A stretch of 10,894 nt of DNA from a virus (IMGVR_UViG_2660238349_000010); one strand, 5' to 3'. Positions 1 to 10,894 are shown, counted from the first letter of the stretch. Notes: generated from the sequence alone by a model not told the origin. A program made the numbers and translations.

Positions 1-660
1 ATGGATCGTATAGTTAGTTCTTCACATGACCGTACATCGCTGCTTAGCACCCATAAGGTGCTGCGTAATACCTATTTTCTGCTGAGCCTGACGCTGGCCT
101 TTTCGGCGATTACCGCAACTGCCAGTACGGTGCTGATGCTGCCATCTCCGGGTCTGATTCTGACGCTGGTGGGTATGTATGGTTTGATGTTCCTGACCTA
201 TAAAACGGCGAATAAGCCGACCGGGATTATCTCCGCATTCGCCTTTACCGGTTTTCTGGGTTATATCCTCGGACCAATTCTGAATACCTATCTGTCTGCC
301 GGAATGGGTGACGTAATCGCTATGGCACTGGGCGGAACGGCGTTAGTGTTCTTCTGCTGCTCCGCATATGTGCTGACCACCCGCAAAGATATGTCGTTCC
401 TCGGCGGTATGCTGATGGCGGGTATTGTGGTGGTGCTGATTGGTATGGTTGCTAATATCTTCCTGCAACTGCCTGCTCTGCATCTGGCGATCAGCGCGGT
501 CTTCATTCTGATCTCCTCTGGCGCTATTTTGTTTGAAACCAGCAACATCATTCATGGCGGTGAAACGAACTATATTCGTGCCACGGTTAGCCTGTATGTT
601 TCGCTGTACAACATCTTCGTCAGCCTGCTGAGCATTCTGGGCTTCGCCAGCCGCGATTAA
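1..660 (+). CDS. yccA: Inner membrane protein YccA (BAX inhibitor-1/TMBIM family, FtsH modulator); host chromosomal gene
   Basis: Complete 219-aa ORF from ATG at base 1 to TAA at 658-660. Strongly hydrophobic multi-pass protein. Translation [28 protein letters not shown]... recognised from memory as enterobacterial YccA; not confirmed by search. Confidence 0.88.
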
Positions 661-694
661 TCTCGCCCAGGGTTACTTACCGAGCCTCGCTTTA

Positions 695-781
695 TGATGC
701 GCCGCGCGATAAATGCACTCTATCTTGTGCGATAAATGGCATCCACGCGGCGTTTCATTATTTGAAAAAGAATTACATTTC
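695..781. repeat. Putative transposable-phage right end (attR-like) with MuA-binding-site-like motifs
   Basis: Plus strand from 695 reads TGATGCGCCGCGCGATAAATGC... The first 22 bp match my recollection of the phage Mu right terminus (TGAAGCGGCGCACGAAAAACGC) at 17 of 22 positions. CGATAAATG occurs at 707-715 and again at 730-738, the second copy at almost the same distance from the end as the CGATAAATG block of Mu R2. A CGTTTCAT motif lies at 751-758. Comparison is from memory, not alignment. Confidence 0.5.
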
Positions 782-1345
782 AGGTTGCGTTATGACAGTC
801 CCAACAGGGTGGTAGCGGTAGATCGTTGACAGTCCAATATCATAGATAATTGCCAGCCGCTTTCTGTCATACCCTTTCTGGAGCAATCTTGCGATCTGCT
901 CATGCTGCTCCTTCGTCAGTTTCGGGCGACGTCCTCCAACTCTTCCTTGTGCTCGCGCAGCAGCCAGTCCTGCCAGCGTGCGCTCAACTATCAGTTCACG
1001 CTCCATTTCTGCCAGTGCACCCATCATATGAAAAAAGAACCTTCCCATCGGAGTGCTGGTATCGATTGAATCCGTCAGACTGCGAAAATTGACACCTTTT
1101 GCGCGTAGCTCTTCTGTGAGAGCAATGAGGTGTTTCATTCTTCTACCCAACCGATCCAGCTTCCAGACCACCAATGTATCCCCTCTTTTAAGGCACTTTA
1201 AAGCGCGTTTCAGGCCTGGTCGTTCCGACTTGGTTCCGCTCATTTTGTCCTCAAAAATCTGTTCACATCCTGCGCACATTAATGCATTGCGTTGCAAATC
1301 TGTGTTTTGGTCATTTGTTGACACACGTATGTAGCCAATCAGCAT
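773..1345 (-). CDS. pin: Serine recombinase, DNA invertase (Pin/Gin/Hin/Cin family)
   Basis: 190-aa product from ATG (minus) at 1345-1343, preceded by AGGGAG. N-terminus MLIGYIRVSTNDQNTDLQRNAL... with catalytic-serine motif, and C-terminal HTH region ...ELIVERTLAGLAAARAQGRVGGRRPKLT... typical of Hin/Gin invertases. The ORF-track extension to 1474 is rejected because the conserved invertase N-terminus starts at 1345 and the extension would run through the crossover site. Confidence 0.9.
   Translation of the reverse strand: MLIGYIRVSTNDQNTDLQRNALMCAGCEQIFEDKMSGTKSERPGLKRALKCLKRGDTLVVWKLDRLGRRMKHLIALTEELRAKGVNFRSLTDSIDTSTPMGRFFFHMMGALAEMERELIVERTLAGLAAARAQGRVGGRRPKLTKEQHEQIARLLQKGYDRKRLAIIYDIGLSTIYRYHPVGTVITQPEM
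1250..1335. promoter_or_regulatory. Putative Fis-dependent recombinational enhancer inside the 5' end of the invertase gene (position inferred by analogy)
   Basis: In Hin/Gin systems the enhancer lies in the first ~100 bp of the invertase coding sequence. The corresponding pin segment (sense: GTGTCAACAAATGACCAAAACACAGATTTGCAACGCAATGC) closely resembles what I recall of the hin enhancer region. Fis sites were not individually identified. Confidence 0.3.
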
Positions 1346-1399
1346 TAAAAATACTCCCTTTTGAGTGGTTAAAGTACTGAGATAATGTGGGGAGGATTT

Positions 1400-1425
1400 G
1401 AGAGATAAACGTTGGTTTGGGGGAA
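1400..1425 (+). other. Crossover site 1 (hix/gix-like, 12-bp half-sites around a 2-bp TT core), orientation +
   Basis: GAGAGATAAACG TT GGTTTGGGGGAA. Lies about 55 bp upstream of the pin start and exactly at the 5' boundary of cassette C. The right half-site is identical to that of site 3 on the opposite strand. Confidence 0.6.
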
Positions 1426-1920
1426 GGCTCTGCACTGCCTGTTGGTGTGCCTGTTCCATGGCCCACCGCCACACCGCCAGCAGGCTGGTTAAAGTGCGAC
1501 GGGCGCGCCTTTACAAAAGAACAATATCCTGTTCTGGCCAGAGTCTACCCGACCCTCCGTCTTCCCGATTTGCGCGGTGAGTTTATCCGTGGATGGGACG
1601 ACGGGCGCAAAGTTGATACGGGGCGTTCATTGCTAAGTGGTCAGGCTGCAACATTTATTCGTACAGCTTTGCAGGATTATTACGGTTACGATCTGAATAC
1701 TAATGTCAAAGTAGGTATCGCTTTTGCTACTGCTGATTCTGTTATAACCGTTGGAAACCCAGCTAATCCTAAAGCAGGAAATAATAGCGATTATGTTCCT
1801 GCATCAGCAGATAACTCTATAACGGGTATTCAAAGGACAGCGGAGGATAATTTTACCGGGGCATGGATATCAATGCGCCCCCGCAATGTTGCGTTTAATT
1901 ACATCGTAAGGGCCGCATAA
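1414..1920 (+). CDS. Silent alternative tail-fibre C-terminal cassette C (collar-domain tip); no start codon of its own, promoterless in this orientation
   Basis: Open frame from the site-1 core to TAA at 1918-1920 encoding GLGEGSALPVGVPVPWPTATPPAGWLKCDG...RPRNVAFNYIVRAA. The first ~70 aa and last ~14 aa are shared with the expressed fibre tip; the middle is divergent. Confidence 0.75.
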   Translation, partial: GLGEGSALPVGVPVPWPTATPPAGWLKCDGRAFTKEQYPVLARVYPTLRLPDLRGEFIRGWDDGRKVDTGRSLLSGQAATFIRTALQDYYGYDLNTNVKVGIAFATADSVITVGNPANPKAGNNSDYVPASADNSITGIQRTAEDNFTGAWISMRPRNVAFNYIVRAA

Positions 1921-1939
1921 AAACGTTGGTTTAGGAGAA
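1914..1939 (+). other. Crossover site 2 (hix/gix-like), orientation + (direct relative to site 1, inverted relative to site 3)
   Basis: CGCATAAAAACG TT GGTTTAGGAGAA. Overlaps the stop codon of cassette C and is the 5' boundary of cassette B. Confidence 0.55.
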
Positions 1940-2443
1940 GGCTCGGCGCTACCCGTTGGTGTGCCTGTTCCGTGGCCCACCGCCACACCGCCAGCAGGCT
2001 GGTTACAGTGCAACGGAGCTACGTTCACTAAAGAACAATATCCTGTTCTGGCCAGAGTCTACCCGACCCTCCGTCTTCCCGATTTACGCGGTGAGTTTAT
2101 CCGTGGATGGGACGACGGGCGCAAAGTTGATACAGGACGTAAGTTGCTGTCCGCACAAGGGGCAACGCTGTTAAGAACAGCAATGCTGGATTATTATAAC
2201 CAGGACACTACGGGAACCTCGGGGATAGTCGGCATGGGATTCAACAATGAAGATTCCATTACAGACCTTCGTGAGGGCAGCTTTAAAATGCCGGACGGGA
2301 CAACATTCAGCGATCCTGTCGTGGCAATGTCAGACAATGGTATGCAGGCTACTATTCTGACCTCTATCAGAAGCGGGTATGCGAAGGGTATCACTGTCAG
2401 ACCCCGTAGCATTGCACTTAATTACATTGTGAGGGCAGTTTAA
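1928..2443 (+). CDS. Silent alternative tail-fibre C-terminal cassette B (collar-domain tip), translationally coupled to the downstream tfa
   Basis: Open frame from the site-2 core encoding GLGEGSALPVGVPVPWPTATPPAGWLQCNGATF...RPRSIALNYIVRAV. Its TAA at 2441-2443 overlaps the tfa ATG at 2443 by 1 nt (TAATG). Its first ~200 bp are nearly identical to the reverse complement of 3330-3541. Confidence 0.75.
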   Translation, partial: GLGEGSALPVGVPVPWPTATPPAGWLQCNGATFTKEQYPVLARVYPTLRLPDLRGEFIRGWDDGRKVDTGRKLLSAQGATLLRTAMLDYYNQDTTGTSGIVGMGFNNEDSITDLREGSFKMPDGTTFSDPVVAMSDNGMQATILTSIRSGYAKGITVRPRSIALNYIVRAV

Positions 2444-3057
2444 TGAGTAACACTGCAGTTCTGGATGAAAACGGTATCGCCACTGTAGCGGGCGAGATCA
2501 CTGTATATCACTATGACGAGGAAACCCGGGAATACACCTCATCCTCTGTGGAGTATCTCGCCCTTGGGGTGGGTACTCCGGCACATTCGTGCGCCGATGC
2601 ACCGCCGGAGGCAATTTCGGGTTACGTGGTTTGCCGGACTGCCACGCTGAACGGGTGGGAGCATGTGCCTGATCACCGCGGCGAGACGGTATACAGCACG
2701 GAGAACGGTAACCCCGTTCTGATTACCCAACCGGGTGATTACCCGGCGGACACCACCACAAAACAGCCGGCCACGCCATGGGATACCTGGAACGGTGAGG
2801 CGTGGGTAACCGATACTGAACGGCAGCGAGCCGCAGAACTGGAGGTTGCCAGACAGCAACGCCAGCAACGGGTGAAACAGGCGATGGCGTCCGTCGATCT
2901 TATCAACCTCAAACTGCGTGCTGGTCGCAGTCTGACACCAGAAGAAACGGCAAAACTGAACGCCGTGCTGGATTATATCGACGAGCTGAACGCACTGGAT
3001 ATCAGCACGGCACCTGAAATCAGCTGGCCGGAAGCGCCACTGGCACTTGCCAGCTGA
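2443..3057 (+). CDS. tfa: Tail fibre assembly protein (Tfa/gpG/U-like chaperone), cognate to cassette B
   Basis: 204-aa ORF immediately after cassette B with stop/start overlap. Size, position and acidic C-terminal region (…LNAVLDYIDELNALD…) fit the tail-fibre-assembly family. Converges on the fibre gene, stop to stop, with a 6-bp gap. Confidence 0.7.
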   Translation: MSNTAVLDENGIATVAGEITVYHYDEETREYTSSSVEYLALGVGTPAHSCADAPPEAISGYVVCRTATLNGWEHVPDHRGETVYSTENGNPVLITQPGDYPADTTTKQPATPWDTWNGEAWVTDTERQRAAELEVARQQRQQRVKQAMASVDLINLKLRAGRSLTPEETAKLNAVLDYIDELNALDISTAPEISWPEAPLALAS

Positions 3058-3063
3058 ACGGTA

Positions 3064-4656
3064 TCACGCCGCCCTCACGATATAGTTAAACGCGATATTG
3101 CGGGGGCGGGTTATGTTAAAGAATGCTCCGTTTAATTCGGCTTTTGCGCGACTGTTTGTTCCACCCAGAATTGCGTACCACAAATAATCGCTACGGTAAT
3201 TCCCCGCAAACACCTTATCGCCGCCATAGTCAATATTATTTCCGTTACTCATGTACGAGATATCCAGCGAAGAATCGTTATCGTCATGACCGCCGACCAG
3301 TGTACCTTTCTGCCATGAAAGCAACTTACGCCCCTCGTCAATCTTGCGCCCGTCGTCCCATCCACGGATAAACTCACCGCGTAAATCGGGAAGACGGAGG
3401 GTCGGGTAGACTCTGGCCAGAACAGGATATTGTTCTTTGGTGAACGTAGCTCCGTTGCACTGTAACCAGCCTGCTGGCGGTGTGGCGGTGGGCCACGGAA
3501 CAGGCACACCAACAGGCAATGCAGAGCCTTCCCCCAAACCAAGGTAATTGAGGACATCTTTTATACTGCCCTTAGCGATAATAGCGCGACCAATAGCTGT
3601 AAGGGTTGCCAGCGCTGCGCGGTCTGCTCCGGTAAAATAAGGCAACCGATCTGCTGCAGTGGCAAGTCCTGCCAGAGCAGTGAGCGTGGCATCTGCCGGT
3701 TGTTTTCCGTTTGCCAGATCGTATGCAGCCTTGACCGCTTTCGGTGTGGCGGCCAGTATTTCAGACGTGCTGTTGATGGCACTGCTCAATTGTATGGTGC
3801 CTTTTGCCGTCAGCGAGGCAGCAGGCACTCCCGTTATCTGACTCCACGGGTGAGTGTGGCTGACGGGCGCCTTGCCGGCTGCAAGGTCGTATGCAGCCTT
3901 GACCGCCTTCGGCGTGGCAGCCTCAGTTTCTGATTGACTGTCCGTGGCGCTGCTCAGTTGTACGGTGCCTTTTGCCGTCAGCGAGGCAGCAGGCACTCCC
4001 GTTATCTGACTCCACGGGTGAGTGTGGCTGACGGGGGCCTTGCCGGCAGCCAGGTCATATGCAGCCTTGACGGCCTTTGGTGTGGCGGCCAGCGTTTCAG
4101 AGGTGCTGTTGGTGGCACTGCTCAGTTGTACGATCCCTTTACGGGTCGTTGTTGCATCCTGGGCTGTGTATTTTCCCCGGGCCAGATCATACGCGATTTT
4201 CACAGCCTTCGGCGTGGCAGCCTCAGTTTCTGATTGACTGTCCGTGGCACTGCTCAGCTGTACGGTGCCTTTTGCCGTCAGCGAGGCAGCAGGCACTCCC
4301 GTTATCTGACTCCACGGGTGAGTGTGACTGACGGGTGCCTTGCCGGCTGCAAGGTCGTATGCAGCCTTGACGGCTTTTGGTGTGGCGGCCAGCGTTTCAG
4401 AGGTGCTGTTGGTGGCACTGCTCAGTTGGGTGAACCCCTTAGCTGTCAGTGTCGCGTCCGGGTGGTTACGGGAACGTACGTGTTCAGCCAGTGACTGTGC
4501 GGCTTCCTCCGTTTTTTTCTTCAGCCATTTCGTCCTGTTTGCCAGTTGCCGGGGGGCTCGATTTGATATCCCGTCAGCACCACCCAGAACCGGATCTGAT
4601 GTCTCCAGTTGATAGATTTTTTCTTCCCACTTTTCTGTTTCATTCAGGTTTCCCAT
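3064..4656 (-). CDS. Tail fibre protein (P2 gpH-like N-terminus and shaft repeats; collar-domain C-terminal tip = cassette A currently fused)
   Basis: 530 aa from ATG (minus) at 4656-4654; the ORF track starts 2 codons earlier at TTG 4662. Overlaps the gpI stop. Five copies of the motif TAKGxxQLSSATxSxSETxAATPKAVKxAYDLAxGK, and ...KQPADATLTALAGLATAADRLPYFTG..., recalled as characteristic of P2 H. C-terminal 159 aa after site 3 form the variable tip. Confidence 0.9.
   Translation of the reverse strand: MGNLNETEKWEEKIYQLETSDPVLGGADGISNRAPRQLANRTKWLKKKTEEAAQSLAEHVRSRNHPDATLTAKGFTQLSSATNSTSETLAATPKAVKAAYDLAAGKAPVSHTHPWSQITGVPAASLTAKGTVQLSSATDSQSETEAATPKAVKIAYDLARGKYTAQDATTTRKGIVQLSSATNSTSETLAATPKAVKAAYDLAAGKAPVSHTHPWSQITGVPAASLTAKGTVQLSSATDSQSETEAATPKAVKAAYDLAAGKAPVSHTHPWSQITGVPAASLTAKGTIQLSSAINSTSEILAATPKAVKAAYDLANGKQPADATLTALAGLATAADRLPYFTGADRAALATLTAIGRAIIAKGSIKDVLNYLGLGEGSALPVGVPVPWPTATPPAGWLQCNGATFTKEQYPVLARVYPTLRLPDLRGEFIRGWDDGRKIDEGRKLLSWQKGTLVGGHDDNDSSLDISYMSNGNNIDYGGDKVFAGNYRSDYLWYAILGGTNSRAKAELNGAFFNITRPRNIAFNYIVRAA
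3529..3554 (-). other. Crossover site 3 (hix/gix-like) inside the fibre gene at the constant/variable junction
   Basis: Minus strand reads TCCTCAATTACC TT GGTTTGGGGGAA, encoding LNYLGLGE. The core TT sits in the same codon positions as in sites 1 and 2, so either inversion gives an in-frame fusion. Confidence 0.6.
3700..4450 (-). repeat. In-frame coding tandem repeats of the fibre shaft (units of 36/56/44/56/56 aa)
   Basis: Near-identical DNA blocks, for example about 3900-4030 versus 4200-4330 (about 130 bp with about 3 mismatches, 300 bp apart). Visible in the ORF track as a repeating plus-strand shadow ORF (MTVRG[A/T]AQLYGAFCRQRGSRHSRYLTPRVSV...) at 3934 and 4234. Confidence 0.85.
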
Positions 4657-4658
4657 AA

Positions 4659-5237
4659 TCAACTGCTCCCGTGGTTATAACTGCCATCATGGATGGCGGT
4701 ATTGTTATAGCGAATGGCCACAGACTGATACTCCAGGCTGGCCAGATGGCAGCGGGCCGGTGCAAATGCAGCGAGCGTCTGACGCAGCATCGCGGCCTGA
4801 TCGTTAGTAATGGGCTGTTTCAGAATAACGCGATAAACCGCCCAGGCGGCTGCATCTCCATGAACAAACAGTCCGTTATAGCTGCGATTGCCGTCGTAAC
4901 TGAGACGACCTGTGCCTTCAATCAGATCCACTTCACCAAAGCCAAAACGGCGGATAACTTCCCGGATTGACCACGGCGTCCCTTTATACCGGTGTAGTTC
5001 GATGGCTGCTTTTATAAGCATGCGGCGAACATCGTCCGATTCCGCCAGCTCCCAGCCATCGCCAGACAGTGAGAACTGCTCGCCCAGCCATGGCAGCGCA
5101 GAACTGTCGACGATATCGACGAGAAAGACCATCAGTACGCTCAGGTCGATGTTATCCAGCCGCCCTGCCAGTCTTCCCAGCGTCCTGAGACTGATATCAC
5201 CCTCAAGCGGTGGCGGGAGTTGTAATGGCTCAGTCAT
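4659..5237 (-). CDS. Baseplate/tail protein gpI-like (Mu gp48 position)
   Basis: 192 aa from ATG at 5237-5235 (ORF track starts at GTG 5249). The ATG overlaps the gpJ-like stop (ATGACTGA). Position between the J-like gene and the fibre gene matches P2 I and Mu gp48. Family call from synteny and size. Confidence 0.7.
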   Translation of the reverse strand: MTEPLQLPPPLEGDISLRTLGRLAGRLDNIDLSVLMVFLVDIVDSSALPWLGEQFSLSGDGWELAESDDVRRMLIKAAIELHRYKGTPWSIREVIRRFGFGEVDLIEGTGRLSYDGNRSYNGLFVHGDAAAWAVYRVILKQPITNDQAAMLRQTLAAFAPARCHLASLEYQSVAIRYNNTAIHDGSYNHGSS

Positions 5238-9575: not shown

Positions 9576-10894
9576 CAGCGGTACTCCTTACGTTGTTTCT
9601 GAGCCAGCAGACGCTCCAGCATTTTTTCCAGCTCATGCAGACTCATATTCAGGGCACCAGTCAGTCCTGCAGGCGCTGTGGTTTCCCTGCCATTGAGGAA
9701 AAACTGAGGATTAAAGCTGACCTGGATACCACCAGACGTTCCACCGCCGGTTGCAGCTGCACCACGGCCTGAATATCCGGCAGCCAGGATTTCAGGCGAG
9801 GGGATACGGGGAACATCCGGTGTCATCTCATTTGCCAGACGTTGCCCTGGTAAAATCGATGCCCGGGTGGAGAGCGGAATAACGGGCATGGAAGACAAAC
9901 TATTGATTACGGCTCCGATCGCATTTTTAGCAGACGACATAAACCCATTGATATCGGGCAACGGCATACTGAAGCGAACACCTGAAGTGTTATCCCGTAT
10001 TTCTGGCCCCTGAATGCTCACGGGCATTCTGGGGAGCAGTTCACTGGCCATTCGCTGCCCGGCCAGAGCTGCAAGCGGAGTGGTCCGCTGCAGGCCAATG
10101 GCGGCCCCCTGCGCGATATTGTCACCAAAGCCCATAAACACGCGGCTCGGCGAATGAATGCCCAGCTTTTCGCTGAACCAGCCACTGATGCTGTCACCCA
10201 TTCCGGTTACACTGGATTTGAGCGACTCCCATTTGTTTTTGATACCGTTAATCAGACCGTCGACAAGATGGCCACCGAAGTCGGTGAACTTTGCCGGCAG
10301 ATCAACACCAAGATATTTCAGCGCAGCTGCAAAGGCTTTATAGAGCAGACCTGCCGGCGACCAGTTAATCAGCAGCTTACCAGTTCCCGCGATACCGCCG
10401 TTAAAGGCTTCCTGAATGTCAGCCCAGCACTGTTTAAACCAGCTACTGATGCTGTCACCCATTCCGGTTACACTGGATTTGAGCGACCCCCATTTGTTTT
10501 TGATACCGTTAATCAGACCGTCGATAAGATGGCCACCGAAGTCGGTGAACTTTGCCGGCAGAGCAACGCCGAAATATTTCAGCGCAGCCGCAAAGGCTTT
10601 ATAGAGCAGGCCTGCCGGCGACCAGTTAATCAGCAACTTACCAATTCCCACAATGCCGCCGTTAAAGGCTTCCTGAATGTCAGCCCAGCGCTGTTTAAAC
10701 CAGCTACTGATGCTGTCACCCATTCCGGTTACACTGGATTTGAGCGACCCCCATTTGATTTTGATACCGTTAATCAGACCGTCGATAAGATGGCCACCGA
10801 AGTCGGTGAACTTTGCCGGCAGAGCAACGCCGAAATATTTCAGCGCAGCCGCAAAGGCTTTATAGAGCAGGCCTGCCGGCGACCAGTTAATCAG
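9575..10894 (-). CDS. Tail tape measure protein, 3' part (5' end lies beyond the window)
   Basis: Long minus-strand frame open to the window edge, directly upstream of the gpU/X/D genes. Contains 87-aa tandem repeats and a Gly/Ala-rich C-terminal region. Assignment rests on synteny and repeat architecture. Confidence 0.7.
   Translation of the reverse strand: MINWSPAGLLYKAFAAALKYFGVALPAKFTDFGGHLIDGLINGIKIKWGSLKSSVTGMGDSISSWFKQRWADIQEAFNGGIVGIGKLLINWSPAGLLYKAFAAALKYFGVALPAKFTDFGGHLIDGLINGIKNKWGSLKSSVTGMGDSISSWFKQCWADIQEAFNGGIAGTGKLLINWSPAGLLYKAFAAALKYLGVDLPAKFTDFGGHLVDGLINGIKNKWESLKSSVTGMGDSISGWFSEKLGIHSPSRVFMGFGDNIAQGAAIGLQRTTPLAALAGQRMASELLPRMPVSIQGPEIRDNTSGVRFSMPLPDINGFMSSAKNAIGAVINSLSSMPVIPLSTRASILPGQRLANEMTPDVPRIPSPEILAAGYSGRGAAATGGGTSGGIQVSFNPQFFLNGRETTAPAGLTGALNMSLHELEKMLERLLAQKQRKEYR
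10174..10894 (-). repeat. 261-bp (87-aa) in-frame tandem repeat array within the tape-measure gene, truncated by the window end
   Basis: Units at about 10174-10434, 10435-10695 and 10696-10894+ with only a few substitutions. Seen in the ORF track as plus-strand shadow ORFs at 10158, 10416 and 10677, all containing ...LNQ[L/P]LMLSPIPVTLDLSD... Confidence 0.85.

Follow-up and report, generated by a model that had tools for sequence, protein, structure and literature searches.

Conserved ends of three interchangeable tail-fibre tips in an Escherichia coli prophage as probable parts of a discontinuous collar domain and candidate start signals for the chaperone gene tfa

The viral DNA IMGVR_UViG_2660238349_000010, a stretch of 10,894 nucleotides that is referred to here as the window, includes one end of an Escherichia coli prophage that houses three interchangeable tail-fibre tips, one of them expressed and two silent. 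The reading that we favour, with a probability of about 0.8, is that the three tip cassettes are collar tips of the kind found in T4 gp37, lambda Stf and T4 gp12, and that their conserved C-terminus closes the collar fold and also carries an RNA signal for tfa, the gene of the tail-fibre assembly protein. Each cassette would provide a trimeric tail fibre with its distal tip, in which one discontinuous collar domain is assembled from ~60 residues at the N-terminus and the final 12-17 residues, and the intervening insert would project away from the fibre and carry receptor specificity. The shared end, RPRN-IAFNYIVRAA, would then be kept for two reasons, closure of the collar at the level of the protein and initiation of tfa at the level of the RNA. 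The fibre gene and the three cassettes (c1, c2 and c3) are arranged as follows.

3064-4662, - strand: open reading frame of the tail-fibre gene, consisting of the constant part and cassette c3 (protein of 532 residues)
3544-4662, - strand: constant part of the fibre gene (shaft), with five Phage_fiber_2 repeats (Pfam PF03406, E 1.1e-93) and tandem and direct repeats
3064-3543, - strand: cassette c3, fused to the constant part and expressed; N collar block 3316-3543, insert 3109-3315, last 14 codons and stop 3064-3108
1414-1920, + strand: cassette c1, silent; N collar block 1414-1638, insert 1639-1875, last 14 codons and stop 1876-1920
1928-2443, + strand: cassette c2, silent; N collar block up to 2152, insert 2153-2398, last 14 codons and stop 2399-2443

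An original prediction, made from the sequence of the window, had assigned all three tips to the phage tail collar domain, and a profile search bears this assignment out. Pfam Collar (PF07484), whose curated gathering score is 24 bits, matches c3 with 56.2 bits (E 3.5e-15, residues 385-432 of the fibre protein), c1 with 58.5 bits (E 6.6e-16) and c2 with 56.1 bits (E 3.7e-15), the full 57-position profile being covered in each case. In addition, PHROG 523 ('tail collar fiber protein') matches all three cassettes, and covers the whole of c3 (E 2.3e-66). In a phmmer search of the PDB, the tip of T4 gp37 (2XGF) is the best or second-best match for each cassette, with E-values of 2.1e-15 (c3), 1.2e-15 (c1) and 1.3e-11 (c2).

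When the cassettes are split at LLS and RPR into an N block, an insert and the last 14 residues, conservation is distributed very unevenly. The N block of 76 residues shows 91-97% pairwise amino-acid identity and the last 14 residues show 71-93%, whereas the inserts, of 69, 79 and 82 residues, are just 24-34% identical. The N-terminal motifs that the prediction had quoted, PWPTATPPAGWLxC[DN]G...YPVLARVYPTL...LPDLRGEFIRGWDDGR, are common to all three cassettes by sequence comparison, and its proposal that divergence is limited to a central insert of 69-82 residues between conserved flanks agrees with the three-cassette alignment. The span to which it had drawn attention, 3064-3540 on the - strand, coincides exactly with the expressed cassette, which it covers from the nucleotide beyond the crossover core (TT at 3541-3542) through the stop codon. 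For the shared end, given as RPRN[IV]A[FL]NYIVRA[AV], the existence of a conserved 14-residue segment stands, and the pattern itself needs amendment: the ends are RPRNIAFNYIVRAA in c3, RPRNVAFNYIVRAA in c1 and RPRSIALNYIVRAV in c2, the last of which breaks the pattern at position 4. RPR and NYIVRA are invariant across 45 aligned homologues with differing inserts.

The nature of this conserved end is indicated by the way in which the cassettes align to their structurally characterized relatives. Both c3 and c1 align to gp37 in two pieces, the N block from approximately residue 810, and the last 11 residues to the C-terminus of gp37 (NIAFNYIVRAA against NIAFNYIVRLA, gp37 residues 1016-1026). T4 gp12 (1OCY) likewise aligns to c3 in two pieces, with C-terminal RPWNISLNYIIK aligned to RPRNIAFNYIVR. 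In gp37, two separate stretches, 811-881 and 1010-1026, make up domain D10, which has the gp12 collar fold, and the elongated domain D11 (882-1009) is inserted into it (PMC6957217); similarly, in the fibres of phage Bas63 the chain turns back at the head and rejoins the collar (PMC12609058). Since D10 is discontinuous and its C-terminal part is the part that aligns to the cassette ends, the conserved 14-residue end is more plausibly the segment in which the chain re-enters a discontinuous collar domain than a separate tag, and membership in the collar fold would account for its conservation together with the N block, in contrast to an insert that can diverge freely. The Pfam Collar model describes just the first 57 residues of this discontinuous domain.

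Structure prediction is consistent with such an arrangement. In monomer models from AlphaFold2, the N collar block is confidently modelled, with a predicted local distance difference test score (pLDDT) of 76-92 in c3 and 83-91 in c2, and a strand is placed near the C-terminus at residues 157-161 of c3 (mean pLDDT of the last residues 83) and 164-168 of c2 (mean pLDDT of the last 10 residues 68). The insert falls below 50 in both models, as would be expected if it folds solely within an intertwined trimer. A Foldseek search of the PDB with the two models ranks 2xgf_A first (E 5.7e-7 for c3, 4.8e-5 for c2), with gp12 structures next (1ocy for c3, E 1.7e-4). Homology with gp37 and the pLDDT pattern together suggest that the C-terminus packs into the collar. 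Once assembled, the collar may also play some part in trimerization with the help of a chaperone.

The second reason for conservation of the end may lie in its codons. The reading frame of c2 runs directly into tfa with overlapping stop and start codons, in the arrangement below; no tfa lies behind c1 or c3.

2429-2445, + strand: GTGAGGG (the Val-Arg-Ala codons of c2), a spacer of 7 nucleotides and TAATG; Shine-Dalgarno-like, with the stop/start overlap at 2441-2445
2443-3057, + strand: tfa, tail-fibre assembly protein gene (Caudo_TAP PF02413, E 3.5e-28; PHROG 105, E 4.3e-88), the sole tfa in the segment

The c2 sequence GTGAGGG, followed by 7 nucleotides and ATG, looks like a Shine-Dalgarno sequence at ideal spacing combined with a stop/start overlap. 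Codon usage was compared across 79 related loci, one genome per species, which yielded 85 non-redundant cassette ends. The conserved Arg of NYIVRA is encoded by AGG in 64 of the 85 and by AGA in 19 (83/85 AGR), whereas AGR makes up 21.5% of the remaining Arg codons in these cassettes (Fisher p = 4.5e-45). Synonymous sites nearby are scrambled, as seen for Ile (ATC 36, ATT 34, ATA 14) and Ala (GCT 29, GCA 28, GCC 17, GCG 9), and exactly two residues follow the conserved Arg in every one of the 85 ends. A tfa gene lies behind 56 of the 85, with TAATG at the junction in 52 of these 56, and AGG is more frequent where tfa is present (48/56) than where it is not (15/27; p = 0.005). The loci were fetched partly by the peptide pattern RN[IV]AFNYI; because the retrieval patterns exclude the Arg codon, the AGR bias does not stem from the retrieval. 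We conclude from these codon statistics that the last four codons are probably under dual protein and RNA constraint, with GAGG as the putative ribosome-binding site of tfa. The string GTG-AGG-GCN-GCA-TAA-TG would supply the Shine-Dalgarno sequence, a fixed 7-nucleotide spacer and the overlapping stop and start of tfa, and this RNA-level signal would have been inherited by c1 and c3 although no tfa is now found behind either.

The three tips are exchanged by a DNA inversion system whose components in the window are the following.

773-1345, - strand: serine DNA invertase, 190 residues from the ATG at 1345 (Resolvase PF00239, E 1.2e-50; HTH_7, E 1.7e-12)
3529-3554, - strand: crossover site of the expressed gene, TCCTCAATTACC TT GGTTTGGGGGAA; outer boundary of inverted repeats I1 and I2
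1400-1425, + strand: crossover site of c1, GAGAGATAAACG TT GGTTTGGGGGAA; inverted repeat I2
1914-1939, + strand: crossover site of c2, CGCATAAAAACG TT GGTTTAGGAGAA; inverted repeat I1; overlaps the c1 stop codon

The mechanically listed invertase reading frame (773-1474) is over-long, the RefSeq start of the identical gene being 1345. The three 26-bp sites are imperfectly palindromic, with a common TT core and right half GGTTT(G/A)GG(G/A)GAA, and presumably resemble gix, hix and cix. They lie at the boundary of constant and variable sequence, at the outer ends of inverted repeats of 226-229 nucleotides, and the site in the fibre gene is inverted relative to those of c1 and c2. The Din-type serine invertase would recombine at the 26-bp site that immediately precedes the collar, whereby each switch would replace the whole collar-insert-collar unit; because the two collar halves are nearly identical in every cassette, the insert alone changes in effect. 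A search with synthetic junctions recovered c1-fused and c2-fused fibre genes with full coverage and 100% identity from complete E. coli genomes, and at a coverage of at least 80% the fused junction is present in 74 genomes for c1 and in 283 for c2, so that all three fusions occur naturally in complete E. coli genomes. For instance, strain DA33135 (locus L002) has c1 fused, followed by c3 and then, on the opposite strand, by tfa and c2, an arrangement that requires two successive inversions. A two-cassette version, with c2-tfa facing c3, is found at locus L003.

The presence of one tfa gene for three tips raises the question of how Tfa is supplied. In the window, tfa (+ strand) and c3 (- strand) are convergent (2443-3543), with no crossover site between them, and enumeration of the possible inversions gives four reachable states, in none of which is c3 co-transcribed with tfa. 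Cassette c1 has two states, one of which (D, the state seen in DA33135) has tfa antisense. A sigma-70 scan of 650-3700 returned no + strand promoter able to drive tfa in the present orientation, its single match being on the - strand and below the shuffle expectation. Either tfa has a promoter of its own, or c3 folds without Tfa. A promoter directed rightward from the fixed spacer between the invertase and c1, for instance, would give Tfa exactly in states A and D.

Comparison with other loci bears on which part of the fibre Tfa is matched to. A c3-type tip (71% identical) occurs in a non-invertible phage with a Tfa of its own encoded behind it; this Tfa is 57% identical along its whole length to the one in the window. 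Over 61 cassette-Tfa pairs, which are phylogenetically non-independent so that the correlation is descriptive, the N-terminal domains of Tfa average ~44% identity irrespective of how similar the inserts are (Spearman coefficients of 0.07 with the insert and 0.19 with the scaffold); Tfa pairs within a locus give mixed identity values. This lack of co-variation with the insert argues that members of this Tfa family are matched to the collar scaffold, and thus one Tfa could serve all three tips. We put forward, tentatively and as the less probable side of the matter, the fuller proposal that one Tfa serves the three tips through the invariant collar with its synthesis uncoupled from the fibre operon, either by an orientation-independent tfa promoter or by Tfa-free folding of a collar-type tip. 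Related invertible segments of classical design have one tfa per collar cassette (loci L016, L036, L065, L067 and L031), and a reduced design with fewer tfa genes than cassettes is found in the window and at L003, L011 and L071. The last of these, from Photorhabdus kayaii, has tandem cassettes followed by a single tfa.

The original prediction had suggested that the conserved last residues might be a trimerization or chaperone-recognition tag, and an autonomous tag recognized by Tfa, or a nucleus of trimerization, independent of the collar fold, is the alternative that deserves the closest consideration. The single tfa gene of this three-tip segment is in its favour, as is the indifference of the Tfa N-terminal domain to the insert, which makes it more likely that Tfa recognizes something conserved; the pairing of a c3-type tip elsewhere with a Tfa of 57% identity points in the same direction. 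However, the homologous residues of gp37 are integral to domain D10 (PMC6957217), and T4 gp12 retains the motif yet requires gp57A and has no Tfa-type partner according to published accounts, as would be expected of a motif that is part of the collar fold. For Mu Tfa, the summary of the published work describes a variable N domain that binds the fibre and a conserved C domain that trimerizes, and describes no C-terminal peptide tag. A separate tag is thus unlikely in our estimation, and the suggestion gives way to an end that aligns with gp37 residues 1016-1026. Its central idea is compatible with the collar-closing reading, in that Tfa could recognize the assembled collar.

A different kind of explanation would place the conservation at the level of the DNA, with the shared end acting as a recombination target or resulting from gene conversion that took place recently among the cassettes. 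An inverted repeat of 52 nucleotides (81% identity) is indeed present at the c1 and c3 ends, and a direct repeat of 42 nucleotides (74%) at those of c1 and c2. Over the terminal 14 codons, however, nucleotide identity between cassettes is merely 67-83%, with 5-8 synonymous and 1-4 non-synonymous differences, and this excess of synonymous change is evidence of selection on the protein and not on DNA identity. Moreover, the motif is kept in T4 gp37, lambda Stf and the 85 cassettes with scrambled third positions, it is unlike the 12+TT+12 crossover sites, and the three upstream sites suffice to explain the rearranged genomes that are observed. We regard a DNA-level origin as highly improbable, and on the codon analysis we reject such accounts of the C-terminal repeats (D3 and I3). 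Much the same low probability attaches to the idea that c1 and c2 are independent genes, each for a small collar-domain protein. RefSeq annotates both as 'phage tail protein' coding sequences, at 1417-1920 (167 residues) and 1961-2443 (160 residues), and both have in-frame TTG or GTG starts. Yet each begins exactly at a Din-type crossover site that is inverted relative to the site in the fibre gene, no promoter-like sequence was found ahead of either silent cassette, and each is joined in frame to the same constant part in complete genomes elsewhere, with 100% identity. These natural fusions identify the cassettes as real alternative ends of the fibre gene and not as free-standing genes.

With regard to receptor specificity, the receptor specificity of gp37 maps within its insertion (PMC9659904), and by homology the inserts of 69-82 residues are probably the specificity determinants of the three tips. 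The claim that variation in host range is confined to a small central insert is sound as far as sequence divergence is concerned, the role in specificity being an extension from gp37. The insert of gp37, of 128 residues, is a six-stranded needle with seven iron-binding HxH motifs (PMC6957217, PMC12609058). No HxH metal-binding motif was found in the inserts of 69, 79 and 82 residues, in which His occurs once, not at all and not at all, respectively. With no HxH and about half the length, the inserts are not gp37-type needles.

Several observations weigh against the collar-closing, signal-carrying interpretation, or limit it. The AlphaFold2 models are poor overall (mean pLDDT 55.6 for c3 and 51.3 for c2), and the Foldseek template modelling scores (TM-scores) are low (0.30-0.36), because the collar alone superposes. 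That the C-terminal strand touches the N collar block is deduced from homology and from the pLDDT pattern of monomers. The 0-1 His, the lack of HxH and a length of roughly half that of the gp37 needle make both the fold of the inserts and their receptor-binding role tentative. In the 79-locus set, amino-acid conservation of the end is circular owing to retrieval by peptide pattern, the choice of Arg codon being unaffected. Finally, AGG is retained in c1 and c3, neither of which is followed by tfa, and the RNA-level constraint is not acting there now.

T4 gp37 (2XGF) is the closest solved relative by sequence and by fold; its collar is likewise composed of the N block and the extreme C-terminus, with the receptor-binding part inserted into the collar, and its folding also relies on a specific chaperone gene downstream. 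It differs in its 128-residue HxH insert, as compared with the 69-82 residues and lack of HxH here, in its CGT codon for the conserved Arg, in the position of gene 38, which starts 27 nucleotides downstream with no overlap, and in that T4 is without DNA inversion. Lambda Stf, which is homologous to the gp37 tip, ends in NIAFNYIVRLA and has the junction ATT GTG AGG CTT GCA TAA TG into a Caudo_TAP tfa. In contrast to the cassettes, it has a long needle-type insert with HxH, a single fixed tip and no invertase. T4 gp12 (1OCY / 1H6W), the founding member of Pfam Collar, shares the C-terminal alignment given above, whereas its similarity is far weaker (E 1.4e-3), its head insert is a different, Zn-binding one, and it depends on gp57A with no Tfa. 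The PDB entries 9CUY and 9MJN ('Short tail fiber') rank second among the PDB sequence matches of the N collar block in every cassette, and align to that block alone (E 5.8e-13 for c3, 3.7e-14 for c1 and 2.8e-13 for c2). The 'collar domain' of the Ur-lambda paper (PMC12617516) is the N-terminal tail-attachment ring of Stf, a different thing, and was left out of the domain argument.

The switch itself is of a familiar type. Invertible segments of the Din family include the G segment of Mu (Gin), the C segment of P1 (Cin), the P segment of e14 (Pin) and the Min multiple-inversion system of p15B. The segment in the window shares with them an adjoining serine invertase (Resolvase and HTH_7) and 26-bp sites with a 2-bp core at the junction of constant and variable sequence, and shares with Min the possession of more than two sites, which gives several states. 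It differs in having three tips and one tfa, where the classical segments have one tfa per tip.

The remainder of the window comprises a host gene and further parts of the prophage.

1-660: yccA, host gene (Bax1-I family), at the start of the window

The prophage end begins at ~695, adjoining yccA, and from the fibre gene toward this end the order is tfa, then c2, c1 and the serine invertase. A tail module of P2 type lies on the - strand, with profile matches for the tape measure, GpU, X, D, V, W, J and I. In other E. coli strains the same prophage end adjoins kefF, gspL or a nonribosomal peptide synthetase (NRPS) gene, and other copies lie near yqhA, ssuB and malE. Given these differing host genes beside the prophage end, the element appears to be transposable, and the differing flanks at ~695 suggest a transposable phage like Mu or BcepMu that carries a P2-type tail module. 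Repeats are found in two of the structural genes. The shaft of the fibre gene has, at 3712-4462, a 168-nucleotide tandem unit (2.6 copies, 85%) and 282-nucleotide direct repeats, and its length varies between strains, the fibre protein having 532 residues in the window, 640 in L002 and 611 in L003. The 3' part of the tape-measure gene (10176-10894) contains a 261-nucleotide tandem repeat (2.8 copies, 96% identical) that runs past the end of the window.

Overall, the architecture is an ordinary and well-understood one, comprising further gp37 / Stf / gp12 collar tips with short inserts that are free of HxH and a Din-type multi-cassette switch, and the current understanding of host-range switching in phages is unchanged. 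For users of domain profiles, it shows again that the Pfam Collar model stops after the first 57 residues of what is a discontinuous domain. Because the last four fibre codons also encode the putative ribosome-binding site of tfa, synonymous recoding or C-terminal tagging of fibres of this kind may silently abolish synthesis of the chaperone. The three cassettes provide a natural example of a rule of fibre engineering, namely to retain both halves of the collar and exchange the insert alone, and they mark the boundaries of exchange at the crossover site upstream, at approximately LLS after the N block, and at RPR before the C-terminal strand.

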